NCBI GenBank assembly: GCA_963751345.1
Contig: CAVVUS010000014.1
Span: 224,001 to 288,000 of the forward strand
DNA from: an uncultured Chloroflexia bacterium
GTDB taxonomy: Bacteria; Chloroflexota; Anaerolineae; B4-G1; SLSP01
DNA length: 64,000 nt
Reading direction: 5' to 3'
Positions 9,376-64,000 of this stretch are shown here, in pieces. Each line of letters starts with the position of its first letter. Within the stretch, counting starts at the first letter, position 1. The notes beneath the pieces were generated by a model, which saw only the letters and a program-made list of their open reading frames with translations, had not been told where the DNA came from and did no database searches. The translations under genes and the position numbers were made by a program.

Positions 9376-10722
9376 ATGATTCGTACGGCGGAAAGCGAAA
9401 CAGTGCCCACAATACCAACAACCATCCATACGGTGACTCCTGTGGCGAACTCACGACTCAGTGGCTTCTACCAGCGCTCCATCGAAGAACGCATCAAAGT
9501 CATTCGGGACCAGGTCTCCTTGTCGGACGATGAGGTCCGGGTTCTGAGCGCGGGTATGGGGCTGCAGGCCGATCAGGCCGATCATATGGTCGAGAACGCC
9601 CTCGGTCTGTATGCCTTGCCGCTGGGCATTGCCACGAACTTCGTCGTAAACCACAAAGACGTGCTGGTGCCTATGGTGATCGAAGAGCCCTCGGTGATCG
9701 CCGGCGCATCTCTGGCTGCCAAGCTGGCACGCGCGGGGGGCGGGTTCCACGCCGAAGCGGACGATCCTGTGATGATCGGCCAGATCCAGCTCGTCGACGT
9801 CGCCGACCTCCAGGCTGGGCGCGAAGCGATCCAAACGCACAAGTCCGAGTTGATGGCACTCGCCGATGAGGTCGATCCGGTGCTCGTCGGGCTTGGCGGG
9901 GGCGCTAGGGACATCCACGTACGTGCCCTGGACACGCCGAAGGGTCCGATGTTAATTGTGCACTTGCTCTTCGACGTCCGGGATGCGATGGGGGCCAATG
10001 CGGTGAACACGGCGTGCGAGCAGCTTGCGCCAAAGCTTGGCGCGCTCACCGGCGGCAGGCCCTATTTGCGCATCCTGAGTAATCTGGCAGATCAACGGCT
10101 GGCGCGGGCTACGGTAACGATACCTGAGGCTGCGTTGGCGTTCAGAGATTTCGAGGGAAGTGAGGTGGCCGAGGGCATCGAGTTGGCCTGGGCCTTCGCT
10201 GCCGCTGATCCCCATCGCGCCACAACACACAACAAGGGCATCATGAACGGAGTCGATGCCGTAGTATTGGCCACCGGCAACGATTGGCGCGCTGTTGAGG
10301 CAGGCGCGCACGCCTATGCCGCCCGGAATGGAACGTATACCAGCCTGAGCACGTGGCGCCGCGACGGCAAAGGGAATCTCGTCGGAACTCTTGAAATGCC
10401 GCTGGCCCTTGGTACCATCGGGGGCGCGACGCGGGTCCACCCCACGGCCCAGGTGGTGCTGAAGGTCCTTGGTGTCGAGAACGCGAGAGAGCTTGCAGAG
10501 ATTGTCGTGAGCGTGGGGCTGGCTCAGAATCTGGCCGCCATCCGGGCCCTGGCTACGGAGGGCATCCAGAAGGGCCATATGAGTCTGCACGCTCGCCAGG
10601 TGGCGATGGCGGCAGGCGCCCAGGGACCAGAGATCGATCAGGTCGCCCAAGCTATGATTGCTGATCATACGATTCGTATTGACTACGCCAAGACGCTGCT
10701 TGATGGACAGCGCAAATGTTGA
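9376..10722 (+). CDS. mvaA: HMG-CoA reductase, class II (true start may be slightly downstream)
   Basis: MVENALG, EEPSVIAGAS, DAMGANAVN, THNKGIMNG, GNDWRAVEAGAH, GIQKGHMSLH. Confidence 0.93.
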   Translation: MIRTAESETVPTIPTTIHTVTPVANSRLSGFYQRSIEERIKVIRDQVSLSDDEVRVLSAGMGLQADQADHMVENALGLYALPLGIATNFVVNHKDVLVPMVIEEPSVIAGASLAAKLARAGGGFHAEADDPVMIGQIQLVDVADLQAGREAIQTHKSELMALADEVDPVLVGLGGGARDIHVRALDTPKGPMLIVHLLFDVRDAMGANAVNTACEQLAPKLGALTGGRPYLRILSNLADQRLARATVTIPEAALAFRDFEGSEVAEGIELAWAFAAADPHRATTHNKGIMNGVDAVVLATGNDWRAVEAGAHAYAARNGTYTSLSTWRRDGKGNLVGTLEMPLALGTIGGATRVHPTAQVVLKVLGVENARELAEIVVSVGLAQNLAAIRALATEGIQKGHMSLHARQVAMAAGAQGPEIDQVAQAMIADHTIRIDYAKTLLDGQRKC

Positions 10723-10734
10723 GAGGAGTGGTGT

Positions 10735-11796
10735 GTGAGTAGTGTGCGTTTGATGAACCCGCAGCGGGCCGTAGGGATTGCCGGTTATGGCTCATACATC
10801 CCTATGTATCGGCTGCCCGGTACGGAAATCGCGAGGGTGTGGTCCGGTTCAGGACGCGGTCCCATTCGCGAAAAGGCCGTTGCCGGTCTCGATGAGGACA
10901 CGGTGACCATCTCGCTGGAGGCCGCACGCAATGCCATCGCGCGGTCCGAGGTTCCGCCCGAAGCGCTGCGAGCTATCTGGATTGGCAGCGAATCTCCACC
11001 TTACGCCGTGAAGCCCTCGTCCACAATAGTGGCCGAGGCCCTCGGTGCGACACCGTACCTGCTGGCGGCCGATTTCGAGTTTGCGTGCAAAGCGGGCACA
11101 GAGGCCCTACAAGCCGCGCTCGGGCTGGTGGGCTCCGGGATGGGAGAGTTTGCCCTGGCCATCGGCGCCGACACCGCGCAGGGGCGTCCCGGCGACGAAC
11201 TCGAATATACTGCGGCCAGCGGCGGCAGTGCCTTCGTGGTAGGGCCGGCGGATAGCGCGGTGGCGACCTTTCTTGGATCGCTCTCCTACGCCACCGACAC
11301 ACCTGATTTCTGGCGCCGCGCCTACCAGCACTACCCCAGCCACGGCGGACGATTCACCGGCGAGCCCGCCTACTTCCATCATACGGAGTCCGCTGCGGCT
11401 GCCTTGATGGAGGAGCTGGGTATGTCGGCGAGTGATTTCGACTACGCGGTCTTCCACCAGCCAAACGTCAAGTTTCCCACGCGCGCTGCCAAGCGATTGG
11501 GATTCACACCGGAGCAGATCGAGCCGGGTCTCCTGAGCAACGTGATCGGCAACACCTATGCAGGCGCATCCCTGACAGGCTTCTCGGCGGTGCTGGACAT
11601 TGCCCAGCCGGGCGCGCGGATCCTCCTGGTCAGCTTCGGCTCCGGCGCAGGCTCGGACGCCTTTGCCTGGGAGGTCACGGAGCGCATCGAATCGCGCCGG
11701 GACAAGGCCCCGACCGTGTCTGACTATATTCGCCGGCGTGTGGAGATCGACTACGCACTTTACGCCCGCTTCCGCGGGAAACTGCGGGACGCCTAG
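10735..11796 (+). CDS. HMG-CoA synthase, archaeal type
   Basis: [20 protein letters not shown] catalytic Cys, [34 protein letters not shown]. Confidence 0.93.
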
Positions 11797-11852
11797 GACT
11801 ATCTCCCCCGTGGGAGGGAGTTGGAACCAGTAAGAAGGGACAGAGAACTCGA

Positions 11853-13082
11853 ATGCGGGATGTAGCTATTATCGGTATCGGTCAGACCCGAGTGGATGAG
11901 CATTGGAGCGTCGGTATCCGGCACCTGATGCTGGAGGCGGGGCTCAGTGCCCTGCGAGACGCCAACCTCGAGACGGTCGACGCCGTCTACGTGGGCAATA
12001 TGCTCTCAGGTGAGATCTCGGGTCAATCACATTTAGGCGCCCTGGCAGTGGACTTTATGGGCCTGCACGGCGCCGAGGCCTTCAAGGTGGAGGCTGCGTG
12101 CGCCTCGGGCGCAGCGGCTTTGAGAGTGGGCTATATGGCGGTCGCCAGCGGGCTCGTCGACCTCGTCCTGGCCTTGGGCGTCGAGAAGATGACGGACACC
12201 TCAGGGCGTGAGACGACGGCGGCATTGGCCGGGGCAGCGGACGCCGAGTATGAGGTCAGCCAGGGCATCTCGTTTGTGGCGCTCAATGCGCTGTTGATGC
12301 AGCGCTATATGTACGAGTTCGGCTGGAAACGGGAGGACTTCGCCAACTTCTCCGTCAACGCCCACGCTAACGGCGCCAATAATCCTAACGCGATGTTCCA
12401 ATCGAAGATCACGGCTGAGGCTTACGCACGCGCGCCGATGATCGCGACGCCGGTGGGGCTCTTCGATGCCTCGCCGGTGTGTGACGGCTCGGCCGCAGTG
12501 GTGTTGGCCCCCGCGGAATATGCGCGGACCTTGAGCCCGGCGCCGGTGAAACTTCGAGCCTCGGCCGTGGGAATGGCACCGTTGGCAGTTCACGACCGGA
12601 AAGACCCCCTGACCCTTGAGGCTGCGGTGACCTCGTCACAAAAAGCCTTCAAGCAGGCAGGAATCACGCGGAAGGATCTCGACTTCTTCGAGCTACACGA
12701 CGCCTTCACAATTATGGCGGCGTTGAGCCTGGAGGCGGCGGGCTTCGCCGAGCGAGGCAAGGGGGTGCAGCTTGCGATGGACAATGAGATCTCACTCCAG
12801 GGCCGAGTGCCCATCGCCACGATGGGGGGGCTGAAAGCGCGAGGCCATCCCGTCGGCGCGACGGGCCTCTATCAGATCGTGGAGACCGTTCTGCAACTAC
12901 GAGGACTGGCAGGACCCAACCAAATACCGAACGCGCATCTCGCCATGACGCAGAATATCGGCGGAAGTGGCGCGACGATCATCACACACATCCTGGAGAC
13001 GGATGGAGTAACAGAGCGTTGGCGCGTTTTAACGTTCAAACGTTTGAACGTGAAAACGTGTCAACGCAATAGCGTCTTATAG
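11853..13082 (+). CDS. Acetoacetyl-CoA thiolase, archaeal type
   Basis: VEAACASG, GVEKMTD, ELHDAF, GGLKARGHPVGATG, QNIGGSG. The last ~25 aa run into an 8-bp repeat array; the true stop may be the TAA near 13009 if there is a 1-nt indel. Confidence 0.9.
   Translation: MRDVAIIGIGQTRVDEHWSVGIRHLMLEAGLSALRDANLETVDAVYVGNMLSGEISGQSHLGALAVDFMGLHGAEAFKVEAACASGAAALRVGYMAVASGLVDLVLALGVEKMTDTSGRETTAALAGAADAEYEVSQGISFVALNALLMQRYMYEFGWKREDFANFSVNAHANGANNPNAMFQSKITAEAYARAPMIATPVGLFDASPVCDGSAAVVLAPAEYARTLSPAPVKLRASAVGMAPLAVHDRKDPLTLEAAVTSSQKAFKQAGITRKDLDFFELHDAFTIMAALSLEAAGFAERGKGVQLAMDNEISLQGRVPIATMGGLKARGHPVGATGLYQIVETVLQLRGLAGPNQIPNAHLAMTQNIGGSGATIITHILETDGVTERWRVLTFKRLNVKTCQRNSVL
13015..13078 (+). repeat. 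Tandem 8-bp-period array, consensus AACGTNNN, 8 units
   Basis: agcgttgg cgcgtttt aacgttca aacgtttg aacgtgaa aacgtgtc aacgcaat agcgtctt. Confidence 0.8.
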
Positions 13083-13100
13083 CGAAAGGGAGCCAACATT

Positions 13101-13502
13101 ATGGAGTCCAAAGTAGCAAACGATTGGCGGTTGCGGGGACAGCGCTATCGGCTGGAGGGTGAAGTATGCGACCACTGCGGGGCGGCCATCTTCCCCCCGC
13201 GCGACATCTGCCCGGAGTGCAACGAGCCGGCCAAGACCCCGGCCCCGTTGAGTGGTCGTGGCGAGGTGTACTCCTTTAGCACCGTCTACAGCGCGCCCGA
13301 GGGCTTTGAGCCCTACACACCCTATACCGTGGCGCTTGTGAAGCTGGAAGAGGGCCCCGTCGTCACGGCGCAGCTCACCGACGTCGCCCCGAACGACGTC
13401 CGGATCGGGATGTCCGTCGAGATGGTCACCCGCCGCCTGCGCACGAACGGCGACGAGGGCACGATTGTGTATGGCTATAAGTTCCGACCTTCTGGATTTT
13501 AA
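13101..13502 (+). CDS. DUF35 Zn-ribbon/OB-fold protein (thiolase-HMGCS scaffold)
   Basis: CDHCG...FPPRDICPEC zinc ribbon, OB fold PYTVALVKLEEG, YGYKFRP. Confidence 0.92.
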   Translation: MESKVANDWRLRGQRYRLEGEVCDHCGAAIFPPRDICPECNEPAKTPAPLSGRGEVYSFSTVYSAPEGFEPYTPYTVALVKLEEGPVVTAQLTDVAPNDVRIGMSVEMVTRRLRTNGDEGTIVYGYKFRPSGF

Positions 13503-49974: not shown

Positions 49975-50032
49975 TAGCACCTTCCTAGTGCATTAGCATA
50001 GTACCTCTTCGTGATAAGCGCCTGAGGCGCAT

Positions 50033-50096
50033 GTTCCAGGCGGATCTGTGATCCGCCGTCTGCACGGAGACGACGGATCACAGATCCGCCTGGAAC
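50033..50096. repeat. 64-bp near-perfect inverted repeat (REPIN-like) between convergent genes
   Basis: 29-bp arms gttccaggcggatctgtgatccg(c/t)cgtct with 1 mismatch and a 6-nt loop; each arm is itself a hairpin. Confidence 0.85.
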
Positions 50097-50136
50097 GAGG
50101 TCAGGATCTCTCCCGAAAAGCTCCCTTGACTTTGCA

Positions 50137-51438
50137 CTAGTCGAAAAACATCACCTTCACGTGCGCCCCGGCCGGAGCGTTGGACCAATCTTCTGGGATG
50201 ATTGCCAGGCCATTCGCTCTGACCATCGAGTTGAGAATGCCCGACCCCTGCTCACCCGTCAGGCTCGCGTGATAGATCCCGTCCCCAGCAACCTGGGCCC
50301 CAGGCTGCTGGCGCTCGCCAGGCTGCTGGCGCTCGATCCGCACGCGCACGTAGTGGCGGCGGTCGTCCTTGGATAGGATCGGGTCGTCAAGGATAGCGTC
50401 GAACATCGGCCGGCTCAAGTCCTTGTAGCCGAGCATCGTCAGGATCGCGGGCCGGACGAAGAGCTCAAACGAGACCATCGCCGAGACGGGATTCCCCGGC
50501 ATGCCCAGCACCGGGACGGTACGGGTGACACCACCGACATCTGCCGTAATCTTGCCGAACGCCAGGGGCTTGCCCGGCTTCATCCGCACGCGCCAGAACG
50601 TCATCTCGCCCTCGGCGATCAGCACCTGCTTCACTACGTCAAAATCACCTACCGACACGCCGCCGGAGGTGAGCAGCAGGTCAGCCCCCATCTCCAACCC
50701 CTGTCGGATCTTGTCTGTAAGGTCGCCGATGCTATCCTGCGCGATGCCCAGCATCAGTGGCTCCCCACCGTACTTCAACACCTGCGCTGCATTCGAGTAG
50801 CCGTTGGCATTGCGGATCTTCCCGGGCGTCAGCGGCGCATCGATGTCGACAAGCTCATCTCCCGTGGCCAAAATCGCCACGCGAGGCCGCCGGATCGCCT
50901 TGATCTGCGAATAGCCCAGCGCCGCCAGCATTCCGATCTCCTGGGGTCGCAAGCGCGCACCCGCGGAGAGCACCTGTGTCCCCTCGCGCACATCCTCCCC
51001 TGCGAAGCGCACGTTCTTCCCCACGGCCATCTCGGCGAAGAGTGCCACCTGGTCCCCTTCTTGCTGCGTCTCCTCGAAAGGTATCACCGCATCGGCCCCG
51101 TCAGGCATCGGCGCGCCCGTCATGATACGGATCGCCGTTCCCGAGGTTACCTCCGCCTCGGCCATATAGCCTGCGGCCAGGTTCTCTATGACGCGCAGCG
51201 TTCTGGGAGAGTCGGACGTGGCACCGGCGGTATCTGCGGCGATGACGGCATAGCCATCCATCGCGGTGTTTGCATGAGGGGGGATGTCCCCCCGGGCATA
51301 GGCGTCCTCGGCCAGTACACGCCCCAGGGCCTCCAAGATCGGCACCTGTTCCGCCTCCAGCGGGTGAAACGCGCCCAGCACCCGCTCCAACGCCCGCTCA
51401 ACGCTCAACATCGGGTACAACTCGTGGTGGTGTCTCAT
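50137..51438 (-). CDS. moeA: Molybdopterin molybdenum/tungsten insertase MoeA
   Basis: [55 protein letters not shown]. Confidence 0.95.
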
Positions 51439-51890
51439 AGCTCGCTTTTCCACTCCGCCTCCAGTTGGCCCGCCTTCACCGACCCAGACTTCCTTCTTCC
51501 AGATGGGGGCGATCTCCTTCAAACGATCGATCGCATAGCGCAGCGCGTCGAACGTGTCCCGCCGGTGCGCCGCCGCCAATGCAATCACGACGGCCGTCTC
51601 GCCAATCTCCAGATCGACCCACCCGATGGAGGATGGCCGCATCCCGGATGTCGGGCCACCGCTCACGCACCTCATCTGCGATCTGCCGTCAACACTTGCA
51701 CCGCCATCTCCGGATAGGCCTCGTACTCCAGGTAACGCACTTCGCGCCCGTCCGTTTCGCCGCGCACCACGCCCACAAACGTAACCACGGCACCAACGGC
51801 AGGGACGACGAGCCGCGAGATGACCTCGTCGACGGTGAGCACCTGGTCCGTGACCGCGAACCTTCGATCCCGTACATCCCCTCCGGCCAT
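51435..51890 (-). CDS. moaE: Molybdopterin synthase catalytic subunit (several frameshifts)
   Basis: [46 protein letters not shown]. Confidence 0.85.
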
Positions 51891-51894
51891 CACT

Positions 51895-52134
51895 TTACCC
51901 ACCACCCACCGGAGGGATCACAGCGACCTCGTCCGACTCGTGGAGACGCTGCTCCAGTGGCGCGTACGCCGCATTCACTGCAAAGCGCAACTTCAGGGCC
52001 TCCAAACTCGGGTAATGCCGGAAAAGGGCATCCTGCAGGTCCGCCAACGTATCCCCGTCGGTGAGATCGTGTTCGATCTCCGAGGCGCCTGCCAACTCCC
52101 TGGAAAACGCGAAGAATCGCACTTTAACCTTCAT
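51895..52134 (-). CDS. moaD: Molybdopterin synthase sulfur carrier
   Basis: MKVKVRFFA...FAVN...DEVAVIPPVGGG. Confidence 0.92.
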   Translation of the reverse strand: MKVKVRFFAFSRELAGASEIEHDLTDGDTLADLQDALFRHYPSLEALKLRFAVNAAYAPLEQRLHESDEVAVIPPVGGG

Positions 52135-52173
52135 GTTGTACTCCATCCTCGTTGTGGAAAACCTTGCCAAGGT

Positions 52174-52713
52174 TCAAGCCCCAGTCTGCTCGGACGCCTT
52201 CGCAAGGTCAATAGCCCACGTCCCGCTCTTGCCGCCTTCCTTGCGAACGAGGCGTATGTTTGTGATTTGCATCGTCTTCTCGACGGCCTTTGCCATATCG
52301 TAGATCGTCAGTGCCGCCACGCTGACCGCGGTCAAGGCCTCCATCTCCACCCCGGTCTTGCCCCGCGTGCGTACAGTCGCCGTGATCCCGATGCGTGCAC
52401 GCCCAGTCTGCTGGGCGCGCCGTCCGAGGCGCGAGGCCTCCTCGTCAATCTCAAAAGTGACATCGATCTTGGTGAGTGCCAGCGGATGGCAGAGCGGGAT
52501 CAGATCGGCCGTATGCTTGGCCGCCATTATCCCCGCAATCTGGGCAGTCGTCAGGACGTCGCCTTTCGGCACACCCTCGGTCGCGATAAGGTGCAGCGTT
52601 TCGGGCAGCATCATGACCTCACCCTTCGCCACCGCCAGCCGCTCGGTATCCTCCTTGTCGCCGACATCCACCATCCGGACGCTGCCCGTCTCATCTACGT
52701 GCGTCAGATCCAT
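52174..52713 (-). CDS. moaC: Cyclic pyranopterin monophosphate synthase MoaC
   Basis: [47 protein letters not shown]. Confidence 0.96.
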
Positions 52714-52717
52714 GCGC

Positions 52718-53767
52718 TCAACCTCCGATCTGGGCCATTGCTCGTTTTTCCGCGCGCTCATCCATATTGAGACGGTGTCCCAGGGGTTTGGCCTGGATGG
52801 CGCTCATGAGCAGCGCCTTAAGGTCCTCCTCGTCCGCCCCACTCCGCAGAGGCGTTCTCAGATCGATCTCATCGTCTGCGAGAAGACACGGGCGCAGCTT
52901 ACCATCAGAAGTCAGCCGCAGACGGTTGCAGAGGTCACAGAAGTGCGCGCTGACCGGCGTGATAAAGCCCAGGGTGCCACCTGCGCCAGGCAGTCGATAG
53001 CTCCGTGCCGGACCAGCACCCACAGGTCCTTCGACCTGCGTCAAGTGTCCCAGGGAGGCTTCCACGCGGGCGCGGATTTCCACCGCCGGCACTACGTGCG
53101 TACGCCAGTTCTCGTCGAGAGCCCCCACGTCGCCAACAGGCATCCACTCGATGAAGCGCAGATGCCACCCGTCGCTGATCGTCTTTCGTGCCAGATCGAC
53201 AACCTCGTCGTCATTGAGATCGCGGATCACCACCGCGTTGATCTTCACGGGTCCCAGTCCCGCCGCTTCAGCAGCATCGATCCCCGCCAGCACGTCTCCG
53301 AGCCGGCCGCGTCGCGTCATTGTCGTGAACCGCTCGGGGCGCAGTGTGTCGAGGCTGATATTGATCCTATCTAGCCCCGCCTCGGCCAGGTCCGCAGCAA
53401 ACCGGCTCAACAGCACGCCGTTGCTCGTCATCGAGAGATCCTCGATCCCCGGAACGTTCGCCAGGGCGCGCACGAGATCGACAATGCCCAATCTGACCAA
53501 CGGTTCGCCCCCGGTCAGACGTACCTTACGCACACCGAGCGCAACCGCCGCGCGGACCACGGCCTCAATCTCCTCGAACCGCAGGATCTCGTCGTGGCCG
53601 CAGAGCGACACACCCTCTTCCGGCATACAATAGACGCAGCGAAGGTTGCAGCGGTCCGTCACCGAGATGCGGAGGTAGTCAATCGAGCGCATATACCTAT
53701 CGTACGCAACCATAGTGGCTCCCACTCTACTCATAGATCCAGGCACTTTATCTTCCAACTTGCTCAC
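52718..53767 (-). CDS. moaA: GTP 3',8-cyclase MoaA (radical SAM)
   Basis: [45 protein letters not shown]-terminal IGG. Confidence 0.97.
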
Positions 53768-53770
53768 GTG

Positions 53771-54319
53771 CTATCGACGCTCGGCGAGATAGGCAAAAAA
53801 CCCGGCTTTGCGCAGCGCCCGCAGCGTCAAAGCCCCGAGGACGCCGCCGAGCGCACCGAATATGGCATAAGTCAGGAACGACCACGCCAGCCCCAAGGCC
53901 ACGAACCCCAGCGGCGCGCCGGTCAGCACGCCCAAGATCCACTTTACCAGGAACTTGCCCAGATGCCCGAGCATCCCCGCCAACCCCGCAGCGACGAAGT
54001 TCTCCGGGCTTCCCAACAGCCATAGCGCCAGGTCCGCGGCGATTCCGACCACCGTATAAGAGAGAAAGGTGTTGAGGGCACCGAGATCGCCCATGCCCAG
54101 GAACGCCGCAAGTACCCCCGACGAGACCCCGACCAGGCTGGCCGCGCCCCGCTTGGGGACGATACCCGCAGCCGCGATGACAATCGCCAACCAGAAAAGA
54201 CCGGAGTGCCCCGGAACCTGTATGGGGAACCGGAGCGCGATCTTGGCGACCACGACCAATGCCGCGAATAGCGCCAGCAGGACCAACTCAAAGGTGGAGA
54301 AATACGCCTTCTTGTCCAT
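53771..54319 (-). CDS. ECF transporter substrate-specific S-component
   Basis: ~180 aa with ~6 TMs; ALFAALVVV (AxxxA-type helix 1), PGHSG loop; adjacent to the ECF ATPase/T module. Confidence 0.75.
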   Translation of the reverse strand: MDKKAYFSTFELVLLALFAALVVVAKIALRFPIQVPGHSGLFWLAIVIAAAGIVPKRGAASLVGVSSGVLAAFLGMGDLGALNTFLSYTVVGIAADLALWLLGSPENFVAAGLAGMLGHLGKFLVKWILGVLTGAPLGFVALGLAWSFLTYAIFGALGGVLGALTLRALRKAGFFAYLAERR

Positions 54320-54798
54320 CAATTCACGTCGATCCGGTCGACATCCTGAACCCATTCGTCGCGGGTGGCAAGCCCCGGCATTCTTGAAGCAAGCTTCAGA
54401 GTTCCACGCCCCGAGAGATCGAACATGATCATATTGTCGACGTCGCCGATCTCCCCCCAGGTCAGGTCAACGGACCTTTCCCGGCTGCTGCTGCTCACGA
54501 TGATCTCGGTATCCGCCGTCAAGTCATCGGCCGGGAGAATCTGAAGGAGAACGTCCTTCAGCAGCCACCCCTCCTGGGTCTTGCCCTCTTCATCGTCCAC
54601 GAAACTGACCTTCTCAAGCGATGCCAGATCGTCAGGTGTGAAAGCGCCGGCCAGCTGGCCGTTGACGTAAACAGGAATGCTGCCGGGTACCAGTCCCGCC
54701 ACTGTGTTGCGCCGGCGAATCAATTCGCCTACGAGCACAACGCCCGCCACCAACGCTACAACCACAAGTACAATGACGATCCGCGTACTCTGCTTCAT
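54319..54798 (-). CDS. Membrane-anchored protein resembling the molybdopterin-dependent oxidoreductase (SUOX/MsrP) fold, with no Cys
   Basis: N-terminal TM; FTPDDLASL...EGWLLKDVL...GTLKLAS...WVQDVDRIDV pattern. Confidence 0.6.
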   Translation of the reverse strand: MKQSTRIVIVLVVVALVAGVVLVGELIRRRNTVAGLVPGSIPVYVNGQLAGAFTPDDLASLEKVSFVDDEEGKTQEGWLLKDVLLQILPADDLTADTEIIVSSSSRERSVDLTWGEIGDVDNMIMFDLSGRGTLKLASRMPGLATRDEWVQDVDRIDVN

Positions 54799-57098
54799 AC
54801 AGTTCCTCTATATGCCAACACCAAAAGACCCATCGCAGCCAGGGTCGCCCCGATCAAGACCCAATCAGCCCAGCGCATCCGGAGAACGTGATACGGAGCG
54901 CGATGCGGCGACTCGAATCCCCGGGCATAGGCAGCTTCGGTCATCGTCCACGCCCGCCGCGTCGCCATGACGATAGCCGGCACGGTCAATGTGATGAGAT
55001 CTCGGGGCCGCCATCCGAGCGCCCTCCTCAGCCCTTCCCCCGATTTGGCCCGGAATATGCCGCTGGAGAAGAACGGGAAATGCGCCCCCGCCGTCCGAGG
55101 CGCATCCGCCGTCTGAGGCGCATCCGCCGTCCGAGGCGCCCCCACTCCCCGCGCCATCTGCGCCTCGCGGATTGAGCGCCACTCGCCACGCAGCAGCTCG
55201 ACACTCTGGAACGCCAAGCTGAGGCTGAAGGCATACCGGTACGGGAGACCCAGGCGCTCCAGGCCCAGCCCGAACTCCTCCGGTGTCGTCGTACTGACCA
55301 GCAGGGCGAAGACACTCGCCAGGAGCGCCACGCGCAGCGTGATCACCACGGCCAGGTCCAGACCGATGAAGATCCAATCTACCGCGAACAGAGCCACCAA
55401 GAGCCACCTGAGCCGCCAGATCTGGCGACCGGCAACCTTCAGCAGCTGCGCCCACAGGAGCAGCGCACCATACAAGGCGATGAACACCAGCATTCGCTCC
55501 AGCGGCAGCATCACAGCCAGTGAGGTCACCACGCTCAAGGCCAGTTTCGCCCGCGGGTCCACGTGACGCAGGGGTGATTGCGTCACCAACTGGGCGGAGC
55601 GGTGGGGAGGCAGAGGAGCCGGGGAGCCAAGGAGCCGAGGAGTTACCTCACATTCCCTCGCGCCTCCGTTGCTTTGCACGGGACATACCCAGTCAGGGAC
55701 GCGAAGGCCGATCCGACGCCAGGCGGAATCCTCGGAGAAGACCACATCCGGGGGCCCGTCTGCCACGAGCCCGTCTCGGCCCAACAACAGAACACGATCG
55801 GCCTGCGCCGCCAATGCCAGATCGTGGGTCGTCATCATCACGATGCGCCCTCGCTCAGCCAGGGCCCGCGCCACGCGCATCAGACGCGCCTTGTGACCGG
55901 CATCCTGACCCAACGATGGCTCGTCCAACAGCACCCCATGCCTCGGCGCACGCATCAACGCCGTGGCCAGGGCAACGCGTTTCTTCTCACCCTCGCTCAA
56001 GAGCAGCGGTGACAGTCCCTCATAGCGTGCCAGACCCAGATTCTCCATGAGCCAGCGAAACCGCCCTGGATCGGGCGTGTCCAGGCGGAATAGCACTTCG
56101 TCACGCACGGTGGGGTTGAAGAGCTGCACGTCCGGATTTTGGAAGACCATCGCGAGATCCGGTCGTCCGCCATCCACTCGAACCGATCCGGTGTGACCTT
56201 GCAGCCCCATCAATGCACGCAGCAGCGTCGTCTTGCCGACACCATTGGGCCCGACGACGGCGACGATCTGGCCACCGGGGATAACAAGATCCAGGCCATG
56301 CAGAATCCTGCGCCCTCCCAGATCCACACCCAGGCCGGCGATCTCCAGCGCGAAGGGTGCAAACGAGGGCGAAGGGAACTCACGCACCGGGTATGGCGCA
56401 TCGGAGGGTATGTCGGCCTTATGCAGGCCCAGAGCCAAGGTATACAAGCCCGACAGCGGCTGCAGGGGTTCCTGCCGGTGCTCGCAAATCACGACCGCGG
56501 TACCCCGGCGCCCAAGCGATTCGAGGCGCGCAACTAGATCGGCACTTGCCGTGCTGTCGAGCATCGACAGGGGCTCGTCGAGGACCAAGACCGGCGGACG
56601 CCGGGCCATCACCGCGGCCAATGCCAATCGCTGCTGTTCTCCGCCCGACAACGTCTGGGGCGACCGGTCTACGAGGTGATCCAACCCAAAGGAGTCAAGG
56701 GCCTCGTCAAGGCGCCCTGCGATCTCACATGATGACAGTCCGAGGTTCTCCAGGCCAAAGACGATCTCGGCCTCGACCGAAGAGCCCAGCATCTGGGCCG
56801 CCGCGTTCTGGAGTACAAACCCGACCCGCTCCGATAGATGCCACAGCGGCGTGTCCACCGTTCTCACCGCATGGGTCGGCCCCGCACCATCCAGCCACAC
56901 CTCACCGGTGAGTTCCCCCCGATAGAGATGGGGGATCAGTCCGGTCAAACAACGTGCCAACGTGCTCTTTCCGCACCCCGAAGGGCCCGTGACCAGGAGC
57001 ACATCCCCGGCCTCCACCGCCAAGGACACAGGCCTCAGCCCGTGGGAATGCTGCGGGTACCGGTAGGCAACGTCGTCAGCTCTGAGAAGAGGAGACAT
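54795..57098 (-). CDS. Fused ECF module: two ATPases plus transmembrane T component (A-A-T)
   Basis: GPSGCGKS/LSGGEQQR/LDEP; GPNGVGKT/LSEGEKKR/LDEP; DPRAKL, AQMARG, AYARGF. Confidence 0.9.
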   Translation of the reverse strand: MSPLLRADDVAYRYPQHSHGLRPVSLAVEAGDVLLVTGPSGCGKSTLARCLTGLIPHLYRGELTGEVWLDGAGPTHAVRTVDTPLWHLSERVGFVLQNAAAQMLGSSVEAEIVFGLENLGLSSCEIAGRLDEALDSFGLDHLVDRSPQTLSGGEQQRLALAAVMARRPPVLVLDEPLSMLDSTASADLVARLESLGRRGTAVVICEHRQEPLQPLSGLYTLALGLHKADIPSDAPYPVREFPSPSFAPFALEIAGLGVDLGGRRILHGLDLVIPGGQIVAVVGPNGVGKTTLLRALMGLQGHTGSVRVDGGRPDLAMVFQNPDVQLFNPTVRDEVLFRLDTPDPGRFRWLMENLGLARYEGLSPLLLSEGEKKRVALATALMRAPRHGVLLDEPSLGQDAGHKARLMRVARALAERGRIVMMTTHDLALAAQADRVLLLGRDGLVADGPPDVVFSEDSAWRRIGLRVPDWVCPVQSNGGARECEVTPRLLGSPAPLPPHRSAQLVTQSPLRHVDPRAKLALSVVTSLAVMLPLERMLVFIALYGALLLWAQLLKVAGRQIWRLRWLLVALFAVDWIFIGLDLAVVITLRVALLASVFALLVSTTTPEEFGLGLERLGLPYRYAFSLSLAFQSVELLRGEWRSIREAQMARGVGAPRTADAPQTADAPRTAGAHFPFFSSGIFRAKSGEGLRRALGWRPRDLITLTVPAIVMATRRAWTMTEAAYARGFESPHRAPYHVLRMRWADWVLIGATLAAMGLLVLAYRGTV
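55088..55139 (-). repeat. In-frame 18-bp tandem repeat in the T domain (AP[RQ]TAD x3)
   Basis: ccgccgtc(c/t)gaggcgcat units. Confidence 0.85.
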
Positions 57099-57784
57099 CA
57101 GTCAAGTTTCAGCGGCATCCAATATCCATCGGCCTGCTCCACAACAGCAATCGGCCTTCCACCGCGACGCGCGGGACGCAGCCGATCGGTCTGTACCAGA
57201 CCCTCGCTTACGATTTCCCCATCCATCGTCTGCACGGCGGCGATACCGGCACCGAGAACCGCTGAGATAGGCTGGAGCCCCTGTAGATCACGCATCGTGC
57301 CGACGAGCACGTAGCGCCCGTCCTCGCCGCTGGCGGCCAAACCAACCGCCGCCAGGGCACCGATAACACCATCTTCGTCGCCTCCGAGCCCAAGCAGAGG
57401 CAGGCCCAATTCCCTGGCCAGATCGCGAGCCTCGGCCCGCGTGACCAATTCCTGCTGTACGCGGTGCCCGAATGCGGTAGCCTCCGGCGGTACGTCCACC
57501 GCGATGCACAATCCAGGATCGCTGCCCGGCACGTTCTCGGCTACCATCAAGTCACGCACACGCGCCAGAAGCTCATCGACATCGATGCCGGTGGAGGGTT
57601 CCAGCAGGATCGCCGCGCTGCTGTTATTCTTCGTACATGGAACGCGGGGGTCGCGCAGCAGTTGGTGGCGCGTCACGCCCAACACCGTGTAGTCCTCGGC
57701 CAAGTTCGCGGCGATTTCCCGGGCCAGATGCCCCGTTCCGCGCGATTCCAGAACATCCGTGTCATCGAGTCCGATATAGATCAT
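57098..57784 (-). CDS. Stand-alone TiaS N-terminal-like (DUF1743-related) protein
   Basis: MIYIGLDDTD...RGTG, RHQL...PRVPCTKNNSSA, SDPGLC, DGVIGALAAVG; no OB or Zn-ribbon tRNA-binding domains. Confidence 0.7.
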   Translation of the reverse strand: MIYIGLDDTDVLESRGTGHLAREIAANLAEDYTVLGVTRHQLLRDPRVPCTKNNSSAAILLEPSTGIDVDELLARVRDLMVAENVPGSDPGLCIAVDVPPEATAFGHRVQQELVTRAEARDLARELGLPLLGLGGDEDGVIGALAAVGLAASGEDGRYVLVGTMRDLQGLQPISAVLGAGIAAVQTMDGEIVSEGLVQTDRLRPARRGGRPIAVVEQADGYWMPLKLD

Positions 57785-57813
57785 AGTGGGCCCTGTCCTC
57801 ATCTGATGGCAAC

Positions 57814-57840
57814 AAAAAAGGCGTCTCACAAGGAGACGCC
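57814..57840 (-). terminator. Riboswitch-controlled intrinsic terminator
   Basis: GGCGTCTC-cttgt-GAGACGCC-TTTTTT on the minus strand. Confidence 0.9.
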
Positions 57841-57895
57841 GCACCCCACAACCACATACCAGGCAGGACGATCGACCTGCACTGTGGGCTGGTGC

Positions 57896-58009
57896 ATCTC
57901 CTTTCCAAACACGGGAGGCGTCGCCGTTTCCGACGAAACCCTATTGCCCAACGTCCATGGACCGTCCGCACAGATCGTGCTCAGCCTGTAGGCGCATTGG
58001 GTCGGAGAT
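57896..58009 (-). ncRNA. Moco/Tuco RNA motif (riboswitch candidate), P3-less subtype
   Basis: P1 AUCUCC/GGAGAU; P2 CCCAAUG/CGUUGGG with CCUAC...CAUGG receptor; AGGGU...GUCG-GAAA-CGGC P4; GCCUCCCGUGUUUGGAAAGGAG 3' signature; upstream of moa/moe genes. Confidence 0.9.
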
Positions 58010-58030
58010 TGACCGTAATCCGCACCCGGG

Positions 58031-58058
58031 ATTATACCCGGCGCGCCTCTAGCGACAA
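58031..58058 (-). promoter_or_regulatory. Sigma70-type promoter of the riboswitch operon
   Basis: TTGTCG-16 nt-TATAAT on the minus strand, ~20 nt before P1. Confidence 0.75.
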
Positions 58059-58926: not shown

Positions 58927-60279
58927 CTATTGCGACTCGGGCGCAGCCTGCTGGTCCAGGTAGGCCTTGATCGTGGGCATAGCGTTCAGCTTCTCATAGA
59001 AGAAGTTATTCACGATATTCAGCACCTCCGCACGCGCTGCCTCCGCCTCGGTGTTGAGTTCATCCCCTTCCTGTGGCCTGGAGAGGCTGTCGCGCAAACG
59101 AAGGAGCCGGCGCACGATTTCTGTCTCTTGCTCGCCTTCCAACGCATCAATCACGGAGAGGATCAGCGCGTCGATCTGCTGGAAGACATTCTCGCGCGAG
59201 ATCGCAGAACCCGACCGTACGGTGTCGTCCACGGTCCGGATGAGGCTGTGCACCTGGTAAAGCATCGTCGTGGGCTCGTCGAAGAGTTCGCGGAGGAAGG
59301 CCGCTTCCTCGTAGCGACCCGTCAAACGGAAGATGTTGTACATCCGCTTGGCGGCCTTGCCGTAGTTCAGAGGATCCTTCGCGATGTACTTCTGTACCTC
59401 ATGCTCCAGTCCGGCCACATAGTCGCCCAGCGCATCCGAGGATACATGCTTGACCAGCTTCGAGAAGATCGGCACAGACTCGGCCTGCAGATAGACTTCC
59501 TGGAAGTACGGGTCCAGATAGCCATCTAATGGCGTGATCGTACCATCTGGCGCTTCCCAGGTCACATCAAGCATATTGCTTGCGTTGGCGAGGGTGCCAC
59601 GCACGGGATCCGCCACTACCCAGTCGAGTTTGCACCAACCCGGGTCTTGCGCCGCCTCGTCCCAACCGATTGTCATCGGCGTGCCGTCCGAATGCGTGCC
59701 TCGGATCTCGCCGGCCTCGACGTCCGCCGCTGACCATGAGATGGGCGTCCCCGCCTTCATCGTGCGGCCATCCCGGACCATTTCCCGCGGATATGAGCCT
59801 AACTTGGCCTCAATGAACTGGTACGTGTCCCCACGCATCGTCTTGAGAGCCTTCTCGCGCATGACCTCACCCAGTATCCGGCAGCTATGCTCGCGGCTGT
59901 CGGCAATGATGTTGACGCGCTCGAAGTAATCGGCATCGCCCGGATAAGTCTGGATCTTCGATTGGGCGGCTGAGCCGGACAGGGCCAGGGCCGTCTCCAC
60001 CTTGCCGGGGACGTCATCGAACTCAACCAGCCGGCCGATTTCGCGAAAACGCGCGAGCTCCGCAGGGCTGAAGTCCAGCATTGTGACCCGGTGCCCGTAG
60101 ACGCCACTCTCCACATCCATCACGACGTTGGCCTCGGCCTGCATAGCTGCGATCGACGTGAGCCACTGCAGCGCTTCTTCCTCGTCCATTTCCACACCCA
60201 GACGCTTCGCGGACTCAATGATACTGTGCAGATTGGCTTCGCCATCGACTGTTCCCGCTCGGTCCGTGATTTCACCCAT
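58927..60279 (-). CDS. Pol-beta-superfamily nucleotidyltransferase-like protein
   Basis: LSGSAAQSKIQTYPGDADYF fits hG[GS]x(9-13)Dh[DE]h; possible third Asp in WCKLDWV; helical C-terminus; GGAGG RBS. Confidence 0.6.
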   Translation of the reverse strand: MGEITDRAGTVDGEANLHSIIESAKRLGVEMDEEEALQWLTSIAAMQAEANVVMDVESGVYGHRVTMLDFSPAELARFREIGRLVEFDDVPGKVETALALSGSAAQSKIQTYPGDADYFERVNIIADSREHSCRILGEVMREKALKTMRGDTYQFIEAKLGSYPREMVRDGRTMKAGTPISWSAADVEAGEIRGTHSDGTPMTIGWDEAAQDPGWCKLDWVVADPVRGTLANASNMLDVTWEAPDGTITPLDGYLDPYFQEVYLQAESVPIFSKLVKHVSSDALGDYVAGLEHEVQKYIAKDPLNYGKAAKRMYNIFRLTGRYEEAAFLRELFDEPTTMLYQVHSLIRTVDDTVRSGSAISRENVFQQIDALILSVIDALEGEQETEIVRRLLRLRDSLSRPQEGDELNTEAEAARAEVLNIVNNFFYEKLNAMPTIKAYLDQQAAPESQ

Positions 60280-60310
60280 CATAAGCCTCCTTACTACCTC
60301 GCTTCGCGCG

Positions 60311-60923
60311 CTACCGCCCGGAGCCCATCGCTCCGAATCGAGCTCTTGCTTCCGCCAGGATGTGGAAGAAGATCTCTGCTTGATCTTTGGCATCTTGCAG
60401 CGCATTGTGGGTCAGTTTCCGCCCACCCAGATAACGTCCGGCGAGCGCTCGCATCGAGGTCTGAGCCCAATGCGCACCGGTCAGCCCCATATAGAACGCC
60501 TTGATATCCAACGCGCTGTGGCCGAAGGGGTTCCGTTGCAGACAGCGGTGGAAGTAATCGTTGACAAACATCCAGTCGAAAGGCGCATTGAGCGCCACAA
60601 AGACGGGTCGATGGGCGGGAGGCACCGTGCGGTCGAGCCAATCCTCGAATAGGGCCATCGCCCTCGTCGGGGGTGTGCCGGTTTCGGCCAATGCCTGCAT
60701 CGACAACCCGGAAATGGCCAGCGCACCCGGAATCGCCCGCCCTGTGACGGGCTGGAGCTCGATGTAGAACGCCTCACCGGTCCGAAATTCGGACTTCTGT
60801 GTCATCAACCCGGCATGCGCCGATGGACAGAAGATCATAGTCACCGGGGTTCGGACCGGAGGTCTCCACATCAACGGAGATGTAGGCCTCGCGTTGTATG
60901 CCCGGATGCGAGACGAATCCCAT
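60311..60923 (-). CDS. DEDDh 3'-5' exonuclease (frameshift near 60790)
   Basis: [14 protein letters not shown] (ExoI, other frame), NAPFDWMF (ExoII), HNALQDA (ExoIII). Confidence 0.85.
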
Positions 60924-60940: not shown

Positions 60941-63311
60941 CTACCGCTCGGCCCGTATTAGCCCGAGTGTCACGATGCTTTGCGATGCGGCCGTGAAATT
61001 CGCGCGGCGCTCTCGGATGGCCAGCTTGTGCTGAGGACGCTCGAGGGCATCACATACCTCCGCGGCCACAAAGCCGTCGGGTAGCTTGACCGAGCCGGAG
61101 ATCGGCCGATCGAGTGCGTTCCACAGCCGCAGGATCAACCTCGCACCATCCTCCGCAACCTTGAGAGTCGTCACCGGGCCGCCACCGAAGTCGACGTCGA
61201 GCGCATCCAGCGACGCCACGGTCGGCCTCCCGCCCGGCACCTGCAGGTAAGGAGGAACGCCGAACTGCTGTGCTTCCCGTATAGGCTGAAGCGGATCGTA
61301 GGCACCGGAAAGCACGAGACGGTAGCGAAAACGCCATCGACGCTGTCCGCCTTGGTTGAACTGCCAGTCATTGCGGGTCAGGTTCATCATCGGCATCGAG
61401 GTGATATTGGTGGTCAGTGGCGCGGCCGGAGCTCCCTCCCGCACGACCGCTGCTTCCCCAAACTGTACCAACAGGGCATCCGGTGTGAGCAGATACGCGC
61501 CAATCTCGTCTCCGTGCACGGCGGCAAAGGTCTGCGCCGCACAGAGGCTTGGGTTGGCACCCGGCAGATCGTTCCCCCCATCGGCAATGGCGCCGGCGAT
61601 CACTATGGCGCCCGCCATGATCGTAGCGGTAGCTGGGGTTGGAGATGGCCAGCGGAAAACAGAACTGGACCGATTGCTGGGGCTCGGACCATCCCCTCTC
61701 CAGGTCGTAGGCGACATCGATCCAGGGTCGACCGGCATGAAAGAACCAGTGCGTAGACCACTGAAACCCCCATCGTTCGCCGGTCGTCTCTACGGAGACG
61801 CCCTCCGGCCCACGCTTGCAGCGGATGTCGTGCACGACCGGGGCTGCGGCGGCGTGAGGCAATACCTCGGGGAAGACCTCCCCCGGTATGGGCTCGCCAT
61901 ATCGGGTATGTACGAACTCGCCCAGTCCGATTGCGGCATCCTGGGGCACCCATTCCCGACCCTCACCGTCGACAAGTGACGCGACAACACAGCGGCGACC
62001 GTCAAAGGACACCCGCCCGCCGCGCCAGGCAAAGGACAAGGACTCGTCAGCAGGCTGAGTCAGAGTCTGCCAGGGAACGCCATCAGGTTCCGGACTCAAG
62101 CCTCGGCCAATGGACAACGCCTCGGTCGCCGCAGCCGCACGCACCCCGGCTGAGATAGCAGCTCGAGCGCGATCTACCCCACCGAAGTCGTGCTCCGCAA
62201 AACGGAGCAGGGCATCGTACCCCTGCCGAATCGCGGCAGCTCGCTTCTCATCGCTGGGACCGCTGCTGGTTTCCAGCGCGTGGACTGCTTCAACCTGTCG
62301 AAGCAGACGCTCGGCCTCCCGGAAGTCCGCTGTCGGTCCCGCCAGGTGGGCAGCCCATTCCTCCCAGCAGATGCCAAAGGTACCCTCCTGCGTAGGAAGG
62401 GCCAGCCCCCGGGCCTCAACCTCCTGCGACACTGCCTCGAAGTACTCCTCATATCGCGCGTCAACCAGCCGCACGTCGCCGTCAGAGGCGTTGAACCGCC
62501 GAATGAAGGCCGCGATGTCATCCGTGCGTGTCCAATTGTCCCACCCGGTGCCCAGCAGCAGAATGCTGGAGACAGGATAGGCATCGCCATAAGCCTCATA
62601 CCGCTCGATCGTCGCTTCGATGAAGGCTACACGCCGGCGGTAGACCTCCTCTGTGTTGCGATCCCCGAAGTCCCGGATGTGGAGGGCATCCCACGTCTCC
62701 CCTGCCAGTCGCGCCAACTCGAAGGCCTCGGCATAACCGCCCCAACTGCCGGTGTCGCTGTAGAGATCCCAATGCACCAACAGTCGTTGTCCGCCGGGCC
62801 CAACCCACCAGAACAGCGGATATGGCTCGCGCTCGGCATAGTAGCTCTCCGCGCGAAGCGAGTAGATTCCCCGGCCCAGGTAGAGGAAGCCACCCTCAGC
62901 CACGATGCCGGCAATGCCCCAGGGCAGACCCGCATTTTCCATGATGAGGGCGGTGCGGCAAGGACGGCCTGCAGCCTCCTCGATGGGCAATGCGCCGTAA
63001 CAGGCTCGGATCGCGAGTTCCGAGCTCAACAGCCCCCAGAGCAGTACGGCGCGATTTCCCGCGTAACCGATCCGCCCCTCGTGGATGGCCCGCAGCAAGC
63101 AGCCGGCCGCTGCGTCGCCACGCTGCCGGCGATAGACCTCCAGCCATAGCGTGCCGTCCAGATTCCAGCGACCGTCAGTCCTCCGGGTGAGATCGAGGTA
63201 GTAGTCGACCAATGCCGCCATCCGCGTCTCGACTTCGACCGGCGAGCCGCACCAGTTGTAATCGAGATGTTTGTCCTGAGCGAGATAGATCGTCCACTGC
63301 CGTGATTTCAT
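60941..63311 (-). CDS. GH38-like glycoside hydrolase (frameshift near 61620)
   Basis: HLDYNW, YPLFWWVGPGGQRLLV, GWDN, EHDFG; C-terminal LKVAEDG...ILRLWN...DALER. Confidence 0.65.
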
Positions 63312-63429
63312 TGGCTATTCCCCTATCGACTGGAGTCAAGGTCCGATTCTACGCCGTCCCCTCGACGGTGCAACCTTGACGAGACCCCCGGAATTGCGGA
63401 ATCTGCGAAGTGCTGATAAGATCCCGGCT

Positions 63430-64000
63430 ATGACGACCCTATGGGACCCACCCCGCGAGTTCAGTCTGTCGCCGTTCTGGTTCTGGAACGATGCCCTGGA
63501 CGAGGATGAGATCGTGCGCCAGATCGCCGACTTCGAGGCCCACGGCGTCTACGGCTTTGTCATCCACCCGCGCGTCGGCCTGCCACGCGACATTGGCTGG
63601 ATGTCCGACCGCATGATGCACTTCATGCGCGTCGCGGTCGAGGAAGCCGCGCGGCGGGAGATGACCGTCATCCTCTATGACGAAGGGATGTACCCCTCCG
63701 GCTCTTCCTCGGGACAGGTGGTCGCCGCCAATCCCGCCTACGCCTGCCGCTGTCTGGCCCGCATCGAACTCGACGAGGAAGAGGCGCCCTCACTCCCGGC
63801 GGGACAGAACCTTGTCGCCGTGGTCGAACGCACGAACGGCCGCCGCATCGCCGTCATCGATCGCCCGGTCGACGCCGTCATCCGGGGCCTCCATTACATC
63901 GGCGAGGGGCCGGCGGAGGATCTGCCACCTGCGGCCGATCTGCTCAACCCTGCGTCGGTCGCCACGTTCATCCACCTGGTCTACGACCGCTATGCCGACG
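63430..64000 (+). CDS. GH106-like glycoside hydrolase (runs off the right window edge)
   Basis: PFWFWNDALDEDEIVRQIADF...GFVIHPRVGL...LYDEGMYPSGSSSGQV. Confidence 0.75.
   Translation, partial: MTTLWDPPREFSLSPFWFWNDALDEDEIVRQIADFEAHGVYGFVIHPRVGLPRDIGWMSDRMMHFMRVAVEEAARREMTVILYDEGMYPSGSSSGQVVAANPAYACRCLARIELDEEEAPSLPAGQNLVAVVERTNGRRIAVIDRPVDAVIRGLHYIGEGPAEDLPPAADLLNPASVATFIHLVYDRYAD

Follow-up and report, generated by a model that had tools for sequence, protein, structure and literature searches.

We describe a gene in a 64,000-nucleotide stretch of contig CAVVUS010000014.1 from an uncultured Chloroflexia bacterium (hereafter the window, meaning the whole stretch), which encodes a stand-alone protein resembling the TCKD domain, the kinase domain of TiaS. 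On balance, and with some reserve, we favour the view that this TCKD protein is an ATP-using cytoplasmic accessory of tungstate/molybdate acquisition, which would act on the oxyanion itself or on its hand-over to MoeA or to a MoSto-like store. It probably handles metal and not tRNA, because it heads an operon with an apparently Tuco-type (tungsten cofactor) riboswitch and because its relatives adjoin genes for tungstate/molybdate uptake and storage. We infer the use of ATP from the conserved active-site residues of TiaS and the metal as substrate from gene context; the direction of metal hand-over is presumed. TiaS itself, the archaeal tRNA(Ile2) 2-agmatinylcytidine synthetase, makes AUA decoding possible where TilS is missing; its DDTD domain phosphorylates C34 of tRNA-Ile with ATP before agmatine attacks, whereas bacteria rely on TilS for this tRNA.

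The TCKD protein and its fold

57098..57784, minus strand: stand-alone TiaS-TCKD-like protein of 228 aa, with the TCKD fold in residues 1-154 and a beta-rich C-terminal domain of 74 aa

The minus-strand open reading frame (ORF) 57098-57784 translates as 228 aa plus a stop codon. A mechanical list of ORFs also holds a longer version with a GTG start (57098-57844), which reaches into a terminator described below. The ATG at 57784 was chosen as start because the GTG at 57844 lies inside that terminator, because close homologues begin with MIYIG, and because GAGGA, a Shine-Dalgarno-like site, stands a few bases before the ATG. All motifs quoted in the first-pass annotation for a protein of about 228 aa were located in this translation, namely GLDDTD (residues 5-10), GTG (16-18), RHQL (39-42), PCTKNNSSA (49-57) and GVIGALAA (139-146). 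The window's own genome (93.4% complete) has the gene in one copy.

That annotation had called the protein a stand-alone TiaS-like kinase domain, and this is borne out by Pfam, by profile comparison and by a structural model. Pfam family PF22641 (TiaS_TCKD) was matched with 29.6 bits against a gathering cut-off of 27; residues 3-63 alone were aligned, unlike the fold match, which covers the whole TCKD domain. The best NCBIfam match was methanogenesis marker protein 11 (TIGR03280, a model of the type hypoth_equivalog; E 7e-13, 48.3 bits against a cut-off of 255.8), followed by the TiaS equivalog NF040849 (E 9e-7, 27.8 bits against a cut-off of 600). The AF2 model of the protein has a pLDDT of 96.7. 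Comparison of the predicted structure with TiaS, the check that the first-pass annotation had proposed, placed model residues 1-154 on TiaS chain 3amt_A with a VIA Z-score of 22.3, a root-mean-square deviation (rmsd) of 1.7 Å over 147 residues and 24% identity. The top Foldseek matches were 4rvz, 5xob, 3amt and 3amu (E 1e-10 to 4e-9), and the 252-aa chain of Pyrococcus furiosus 3U02, titled TiaS, reached Z 15.3.

The C-terminal domain (residues 155-228), modelled alone with a pLDDT of 87.7, has neither a Pfam family nor a fold match; its best VIA Z-score was 2.3 and Foldseek returned nothing at E <= 0.001. The absence of tRNA-binding domains, claimed earlier from the letters alone, thus agrees with these searches. 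A TOBE/Mop-like molybdate-binding fold was sought in the model of this domain and was not seen. Twelve longer family members were searched for informative fusions; Pfam shows TCKD or nothing in them, and their extensions have no match in the collected loci.

Relatives are numerous. Among 1.84 billion cluster representatives, the TCKD protein matches 852 clusters at 50% identity with E <= 1e-3, of which 559 reach E <= 1e-10. Most of the best 150 of the 852 clusters are 225-270 aa long and match over their full length, which indicates a family of stand-alone proteins and not fragments. The database names carried by relatives, 'TiaS' and 'ABC transporter substrate-binding protein', are automatic and unsupported.

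Conservation was read from an alignment of 101 relatives with 35-68% identity to the query. Residues D7, D8, T9, T17, N54, G142 and G156 are invariant in it, and D10, G16, R39, H40, Q41, P49, T51, G87, G91, R157, R203 and P204 are conserved in at least 90% of the sequences. The profile of these relatives matches TiaS chains with E-values between 4e-13 and 6e-13, and its alignment to Archaeoglobus fulgidus TiaS is gap-free, with D7, D8, T9 and D10 corresponding to TiaS D8, D9, T10 and D11, and T17 to T18. TiaS D8, D9 and D11 are reportedly Mg-ATP ligands and T18 the autophosphorylated threonine (Terasaka 2011, Osawa 2011).

With TiaS (3AMT, 3AMU, 4RVZ, 5XOB and the fragment 3U02) the TCKD protein has in common the fold of residues 1-154, the DDTD motif, the threonine at the position of Thr18 and the P-x-T-x-x-N and G-x-I-G-A-L-A-A motifs, and the mode of ATP binding is probably shared too. 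It differs in size and modules: TiaS chains of 417-440 aa carry FLD, OB and zinc-ribbon modules, none of which is found in the 228 aa. Family-specific residues are RHQ 39-41, NSS 54-56, SD 88-89, R157 and R203/P204. Whereas TiaS stands in a translation context, the TCKD protein is bacterial, belongs to a TilS-bearing genome and stands in a tungsten/molybdenum (W/Mo) context. In methanogenesis marker protein 11 the C-terminal half is a related TCKD-like domain, with residues 2-154 aligning to positions 135-287 of the 292-position model; the N-terminal half of marker 11 has no counterpart in the TCKD protein, nor has the C-terminal domain of the TCKD protein one in marker 11.

Riboswitch, operon and genome

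The first-pass annotation placed the gene at the head of a pterin-cofactor operon. We reach the same conclusion from a molybdenum cofactor (Moco)/Tuco riboswitch and a terminator upstream and from the energy-coupling factor (ECF) transporter and moa/moeA genes downstream. In the order of transcription the features around the TCKD gene are:

58031..58058, minus strand: promoter-like site (TTGTCG, 16-nt spacer, TATAAT), a consensus match alone, just upstream of the aptamer
57882..58019, minus strand: Moco/Tuco riboswitch aptamer RF01055, P3-less variant, found by covariance model
57810..57840, minus strand: intrinsic terminator, GGCGTCTCC-TTGT-GAGACGCC followed by TTTTTTG, between aptamer and start codon
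54795..57098, minus strand: fused ECF energising module of 767 aa (A-A-T), two ABC ATPase domains and a CbiQ-type T domain
54319..54798, minus strand: p159, 159 aa, with a predicted N-terminal hydrophobic anchor and a domain distantly like an Oxidored_molyb-like domain of relatives
53771..54355, minus strand: p194, an integral membrane protein of 194 aa and probable S component, from Atlas clusters
52718..53767, minus strand: moaA, radical-SAM GTP cyclase (Radical_SAM E 4e-34, Mob_synth_C E 2e-34)
52174..52761, minus strand: moaC (MoaC E 1.7e-56)
51895..52170, minus strand: moaD, ThiS-family sulfur carrier (ThiS E 7.9e-17)
50137..51881, minus strand: moaE running into moeA, with moaE read in three frames and the moeA ORF at 50137-51675

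The promoter-like site has 10 of 12 consensus matches, and one such site was found against 0.1 expected in shuffled sequence. The aptamer scores 63.8 bits against a gathering threshold of 36 (E 1.3e-13, model positions 1-135). In the alignment the P3 columns are deleted both in this aptamer and in the only other RF01055 copy of the genome. Regulski 2008 (PMC2408646) reports P3 to be absent from 58 of 176 Moco RNAs and 17 of the 19 organisms with P3-less RNAs to have tungsten-cofactor genes, and proposes sensing of Tuco; following this class assignment the window aptamer would be of the Tuco type. The terminator stem has 8 pairs, 6 of them GC, plus the T-run, and is likely the expression platform of a transcriptional OFF-switch.

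The TCKD stop codon and the start of the ECF gene overlap by one base in TGATG. The 767-aa fusion matches ABC_tran twice (E 1e-45), CbiQ at 508-654 (E 1.6e-16), ECF_ATPase_1 (E 4e-78) and ECF_ATPase_2 (E 1e-70), the latter two below their equivalog cut-offs. No Pfam family was found for p159; in profile comparison it resembles an Oxidored_molyb-like domain that in relatives is joined to TupA or lies beside it (hhalign probability 67%, E 5e-5, 119 columns), and this link is weak and comes from the profile comparison alone, BLASTP of p159 against a fusion of that domain to TupA (locus L027) giving no match (E 1.2). For p194 no Pfam family reached threshold (best E 0.37); it falls with Atlas clusters named ECF S component (scores 0.94-0.98), in which 14-31% of members carry PF09819, and its archaeal homologue matches PF09819 with E 0.005. 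Both small proteins are kept across ECF cassettes, p194 at 34% identity in the archaeal locus.

Group I ECF systems such as CbiMNQO and NikMNQO(KL) likewise have a dedicated A/T module, a small anchored protein and an end-product riboswitch, together with their own S component, for which p194 is the candidate in the window. In the window, by comparison, A, A and T are fused in 767 aa, the probable S component reaches the threshold of no curated Pfam family and a cytoplasmic TCKD enzyme belongs to the cassette. Unlike Cbi and Nik, the window's importer likely carries an oxyanion or a pterin and not a cation.

The moeA ORF contains MoeA_N (E 1.4e-49), MoCF_biosynth and MoeA_C, with a MoaE fragment at its N-terminus. 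The operon as predicted encodes de novo molybdopterin (MPT) synthesis and ends in the insertase MoeA. At 51484-51881 on the minus strand, MoaE appears as three tblastn pieces in three frames, the last in frame with moeA. A relative that is 94-100% identical (L010) has MoaE as a single intact match; the disrupted moaE reflects misassembly or else broke recently. A palindromic hairpin (50021-50105, both strands) separates moeA from a convergent aldo/keto-reductase gene. It matches several miRNA models in either orientation, always below the gathering threshold, and is most likely a bidirectional terminator and not an RNA gene.

In the rest of the window's genome, eight loci outside the window (L134-L141) contain nine AFOR_N matches. 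These amount to about eight genes of the aldehyde:ferredoxin oxidoreductase (AOR) family, one of which, on contig C47, is split in two pieces. Enzymes of this family are typically tungstoenzymes. Matches to enzymes with the Mo-bisPGD cofactor are few. No ModA, TupA, MoSto or MOT1 was found in this 93.4%-complete genome, and its three SBP_bac_11 matches are a PstS-like, a thiamine/iron-like and a VWA protein. The window's ECF importer is undescribed, and its genome combines about eight AOR genes with the lack of any recognisable Mod, Tup or MOT1 importer. Besides MoeA, the genome encodes two MoCF_biosynth proteins. We rejected the idea that the TCKD protein replaces MogA/MoaB, given these two proteins and the lack of a PF00994 match in the TCKD protein.

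The second RF01055 copy, also P3-less (71.6 bits), heads another ECF operon on contig C37 (L053:1-12501, outside the window). That operon encodes a 480-aa S component with PF09819, a 512-aa A-A ATPase, a 261-aa CbiQ T component and a 304-aa unassigned protein, as well as a 379-aa phosphodiesterase of the alkaline-phosphatase superfamily. Two small proteins with an Oxidored_molyb domain (E 3e-13 and 2e-6) also belong to it; a TCKD gene does not.

Across 151 genomes sampled evenly from the phylum, the TCKD family is present in 6 and AOR in 59, the AOR tally including the unpublished genome G043. AOR is present in five of the six TCKD-positive genomes, with 5-13 matches each, and in 54 of the other 145.

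Relatives and their gene neighbourhoods

Loci of relatives with 44-95% identity in the TCKD protein were collected from species genomes (45) and metagenomes (80). The species genomes come mainly from Anaerolineae and other Chloroflexota; the rest are a few Spirochaetota, Planctomycetota and Gemmatimonas and one Bathyarchaeia. Neighbours were identified by tblastn with the window proteins and with neighbours met on the way (E <= 1e-6, query cover >= 50%), and an ECF ATPase was counted as cognate at an identity of at least 45%. Loci with at least 1100 nt upstream and at least 1500 nt downstream were considered well flanked (n = 69).

The first-pass annotation had suggested a survey of the family's neighbourhoods and named a missing link to molybdenum/tungsten genes as evidence against its idea. 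Such a link was found: 102 of the 125 loci have at least one Mo/W-linked neighbour, and 20 of the 23 lacking one have less than 1.2 kb on at least one side of the gene. An ECF ATPase lies directly downstream of the TCKD gene in 45 of 83 loci with room for it, a full ECF cassette is present in 33 of 60, and a MoSto-like gene lies at most 1.1 kb upstream in 49 of 93. The well-flanked loci divide into 11 with both a MoSto-like gene and an ECF cassette, 25 with the cassette alone, 25 with the MoSto-like gene alone and 8 with neither. These eight comprise a broken cassette (L015), a p194-like gene (L041 and L127), moaA (L118), a truncated TCKD gene with p194 and Moa genes (L043), and three loci with nothing recognisable (L042, L045 and L130). 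Of the 125 loci, 30 have TupA, 40 an Oxidored_molyb-like domain and 12 Moa/MoeA genes.

The neighbours that recur most regularly belong to the metal side; they encode a MoSto-like storage protein, TupABC, MOT1 and an ATPase bearing TOBE domains. The neighbouring AA_kinase protein is a close homologue of MoSto (E 6.5e-74 to MosB and 2e-46 to MosA), and the neighbouring binding protein resembles TupA (E 2.5e-66, short of the equivalog cut-off). MoSto of Azotobacter vinelandii (MosA/MosB; PDB 2OGX, 6GU5) is an ATP-dependent system for handling Mo/W. It is homologous to this commonest neighbour and not to the TCKD protein, which has a different fold, and whereas MoSto is an alpha/beta pair, the loci of TCKD relatives carry one MoSto-like gene each. 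A complex prediction for the MoSto-like and TCKD proteins of L006 scored 0.00, which has no bearing either way.

Taken over all loci, oxyanion transporters and the metal store partner TCKD in at least four architectures (ECF, Tup, MOT1 and TonB). In L111 the order is MOT1 (opposite strand), MoSto-like gene, TCKD gene, TupA, permease and ATPase with TOBE domains; L133 is arranged alike, except that the TCKD gene precedes the MoSto-like gene. In L122 and L132 the TCKD gene stands behind a TonB-dependent receptor. These MOT1/MoSto/Tup and TonB contexts belong to distant relatives with 44-51% identity, whose loci we regard as the most informative. A homologue of p194 was not found in any of five genomes with MoSto-context TCKD genes, one of them a complete chromosome; elsewhere the same query reaches homologues of as little as 34% identity. 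In these five genomes the family thus seems independent of the ECF S component. Several loci, e.g. L002, L003 and L007, have TupABC next to the ECF cassette.

The Oxidored_molyb-like domain, of about 115 aa, is fused to the C-terminus of TupA in L027:4991-6301 (plus strand), a fusion that ties it to tungstate capture. Elsewhere it stands alone right upstream of the TCKD gene, e.g. in L005:7481-7876 and L016:7629-7997. In L036:3194-6187 and L037:8695-14197 the A-A part of the ECF gene is separated from the T part by a gap that holds an extra RF01055; in L037 this gap also holds TupA and an ABC ATPase.

RF01055 was scanned for in the species-genome loci and was present in 11 of the 45, each time on the strand of the TCKD gene. 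Another arrangement directly upstream of the TCKD gene is a divergent pair, a conserved 84-aa protein followed by a DUF134 helix-turn-helix protein:

L026:7654-7908 and L026:7336-7647, minus strand: 84-aa gene and DUF134 gene, a pair present in many loci, e.g. L017:3770-4024 (minus strand)

Where there is room for them, the 84-aa gene is seen at 59 of 111 loci and DUF134 at 38 of 103. The 84-aa protein forms 71 clusters and has no Pfam family. A riboswitch was sought at E <= 0.1 in the spacer between DUF134 and TCKD of nine loci and none was found; the spacer holds the conserved 84-aa gene. In loci that lack the riboswitch, this pair may act as the regulator. Neither gene was found in the window's genome.

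Elsewhere in the window, genes for HMG-CoA reductase, a KAS-III-like protein, a thiolase and a ChsH2-type OB/zinc-ribbon protein stand in a row (9376-13502, plus strand), which we take to be a mevalonate-pathway cluster with an archaeal-style thiolase/HMG-CoA synthase scaffold protein. Three large ORFs beside the operon have no Pfam match at E <= 1e-6, at 58927-60405 (minus strand, 492 aa), 61368-63311 (minus strand, 647 aa) and 63376-63999 (plus strand, open-ended, 208 aa).

Proposed role and alternative explanations

In the scheme that we favour, the tRNA-binding modules would all have been lost and the TCKD fold retained as an ATP-using enzyme of the kinase type. The protein would be made with, and translationally coupled to, a dedicated ECF importer (A-A-T, p159 and p194) and the molybdopterin and metal-insertion genes, and the P3-less riboswitch with its terminator would turn the whole set off when finished cofactor is plentiful. 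Mg-ATP would be bound through the DDTD motif, a phospho-Thr17 intermediate being possible as at TiaS Thr18, and ATP would be spent on the imported oxyanion or on its hand-over. Tungstate or molybdate may in this way be trapped or activated for MoeA, and the MoSto-like store may be loaded or unloaded in genomes having one. As judged from the residues kept, the protein is probably catalytically active. A bolder version, which we consider rather unlikely, holds that the family performs an unrecorded ATP-dependent step on the metal side, by way of an adenylyl- or phospho-oxyanion or of phospho-Thr17, which would feed MoeA or the MoSto-like store and perhaps select W over Mo, and that the window encodes the first importer of W/Mo oxyanions of the ECF type.

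Several points weigh against an accessory role in metal acquisition. The familiar cargoes of ECF transporters are vitamins and Ni/Co cations, not oxyanions, and it would be strange for TupABC and an ECF cassette beside it to import the same oxyanion. The p159 protein and the two small C37 proteins resemble the Moco-binding domain of sulfite-oxidase-type enzymes, which would fit a pterin equally well. Loci L042, L045 and L130 have ample flanks and no Mo/W neighbour. The lack of Mod, Tup and MOT1 rests on a 93%-complete assembly, and the association with AOR is only suggestive, with six positives that are mutually related. Conserved motifs are no proof of catalysis. No paper on the TCKD family was found in the open literature, subscription papers being outside its coverage; the part covered of PMC3766115 does not mention the family.

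The first-pass annotation had proposed a small-molecule substrate, for example an imported pterin. The link of the homologues to Mo/W genes is strong; the pterin is less supported, for the most regular neighbours are metal-side genes, no homologue of the S component was found in five genomes, the operon makes MPT de novo and no known Mo/W importer was found in the window's genome. Developed in full, this proposal has the ECF system import a dephosphorylated or degraded molybdopterin-type pterin, caught outside by p159, and the TCKD protein re-phosphorylate or activate it with ATP. The translational coupling of the TCKD gene to the importer would suit it, and so would the vitamins that ECF systems typically carry, with salvage kinases for some. 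It could also draw on the distant relationship of p159 to the Oxidored_molyb-like domain, which Pfam links to a Moco-binding domain, yet L027 joins that domain to TupA, a lipoprotein that binds tungstate. The phosphodiesterase and Oxidored_molyb proteins of the C37 operon would fit extracellular processing of a phosphorylated cofactor. Pterin salvage sits badly with 25 of the 69 well-flanked loci, where the TCKD gene adjoins a MoSto-like gene and Tup or MOT1 genes but no ECF cassette, with the absence of an S-component homologue from all five MoSto-context genomes and with the de novo synthesis of MPT encoded in the window, and we regard it as improbable.

HPPK acts on a pterin and in doing so splits ATP to AMP, and its weak resemblance to the model would also speak for salvage. 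HPPK chains have an alpha/beta core similar to that of the model at Z 6.3-6.4 (rmsd 3.2-3.6 Å over 107-112 residues; Foldseek probability 0.6-0.9, E 0.05-0.07), but these Z-scores are level with those of many ferredoxin-like and ACT-like folds, in a range that the tool itself calls common. No sequence similarity or common motif was found between the two proteins, and HPPK was not accepted as a relative.

TiaS is described as a kinase of both RNA and protein. The TCKD protein might accordingly phosphorylate itself or a partner such as the ECF ATPase, the MoSto-like protein or MoeA, and tune uptake, storage or release as a gatekeeper that touches neither metal nor pterin. The threonine equivalent to the TiaS autophosphorylation site is invariant and the partners to which the gene is tightly coupled vary from genome to genome, as such a regulator would allow; those partners (the ECF cassette alone, the MoSto-like protein alone, or both) nevertheless include no constant protein target. 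The ECF cassette has no TOBE-type sensor, yet no kinase would be needed for that. The conserved 74-aa C-terminal domain, with Arg157 and Arg203 kept in at least 90% of relatives, looks more like a small-ligand site. A purely regulatory kinase thus seems to us improbable as well, to the same degree as the salvage enzyme.

A minimal TiaS that still modifies tRNA or another RNA, for instance with an RNA-binding partner, would account for fold and motifs, which are those of TiaS, and for the name TiaS that some sources give to relatives. We find it scarcely credible: the protein has none of the FLD, OB and zinc-ribbon modules, the C-terminal domain is unmatched, the TiaS equivalog NF040849 is reached with 27.8 bits where 600 are required, and cofactor riboswitch control and the Mo/W genes at 102 of 125 loci speak against such a function. 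The genome moreover has TilS (N-terminal family TIGR02432, 182 bits against a cut-off of 93.6), which makes action on tRNA(Ile2) unlikely; the first-pass annotation had noted that bacteria use TilS for that tRNA.

We return to the accessory role in tungstate/molybdate acquisition. How these oxyanions pass from transporter to MoeA, and how W and Mo are told apart, is poorly understood, and the TCKD family offers a concrete protein to test. A rare kinase fold appears here in a widespread family that is wired into metal supply through several independent gene architectures. If the protein does act on the metal, the textbook pathway would gain a step, and the kinase domain of TiaS would be seen to work outside tRNA modification.

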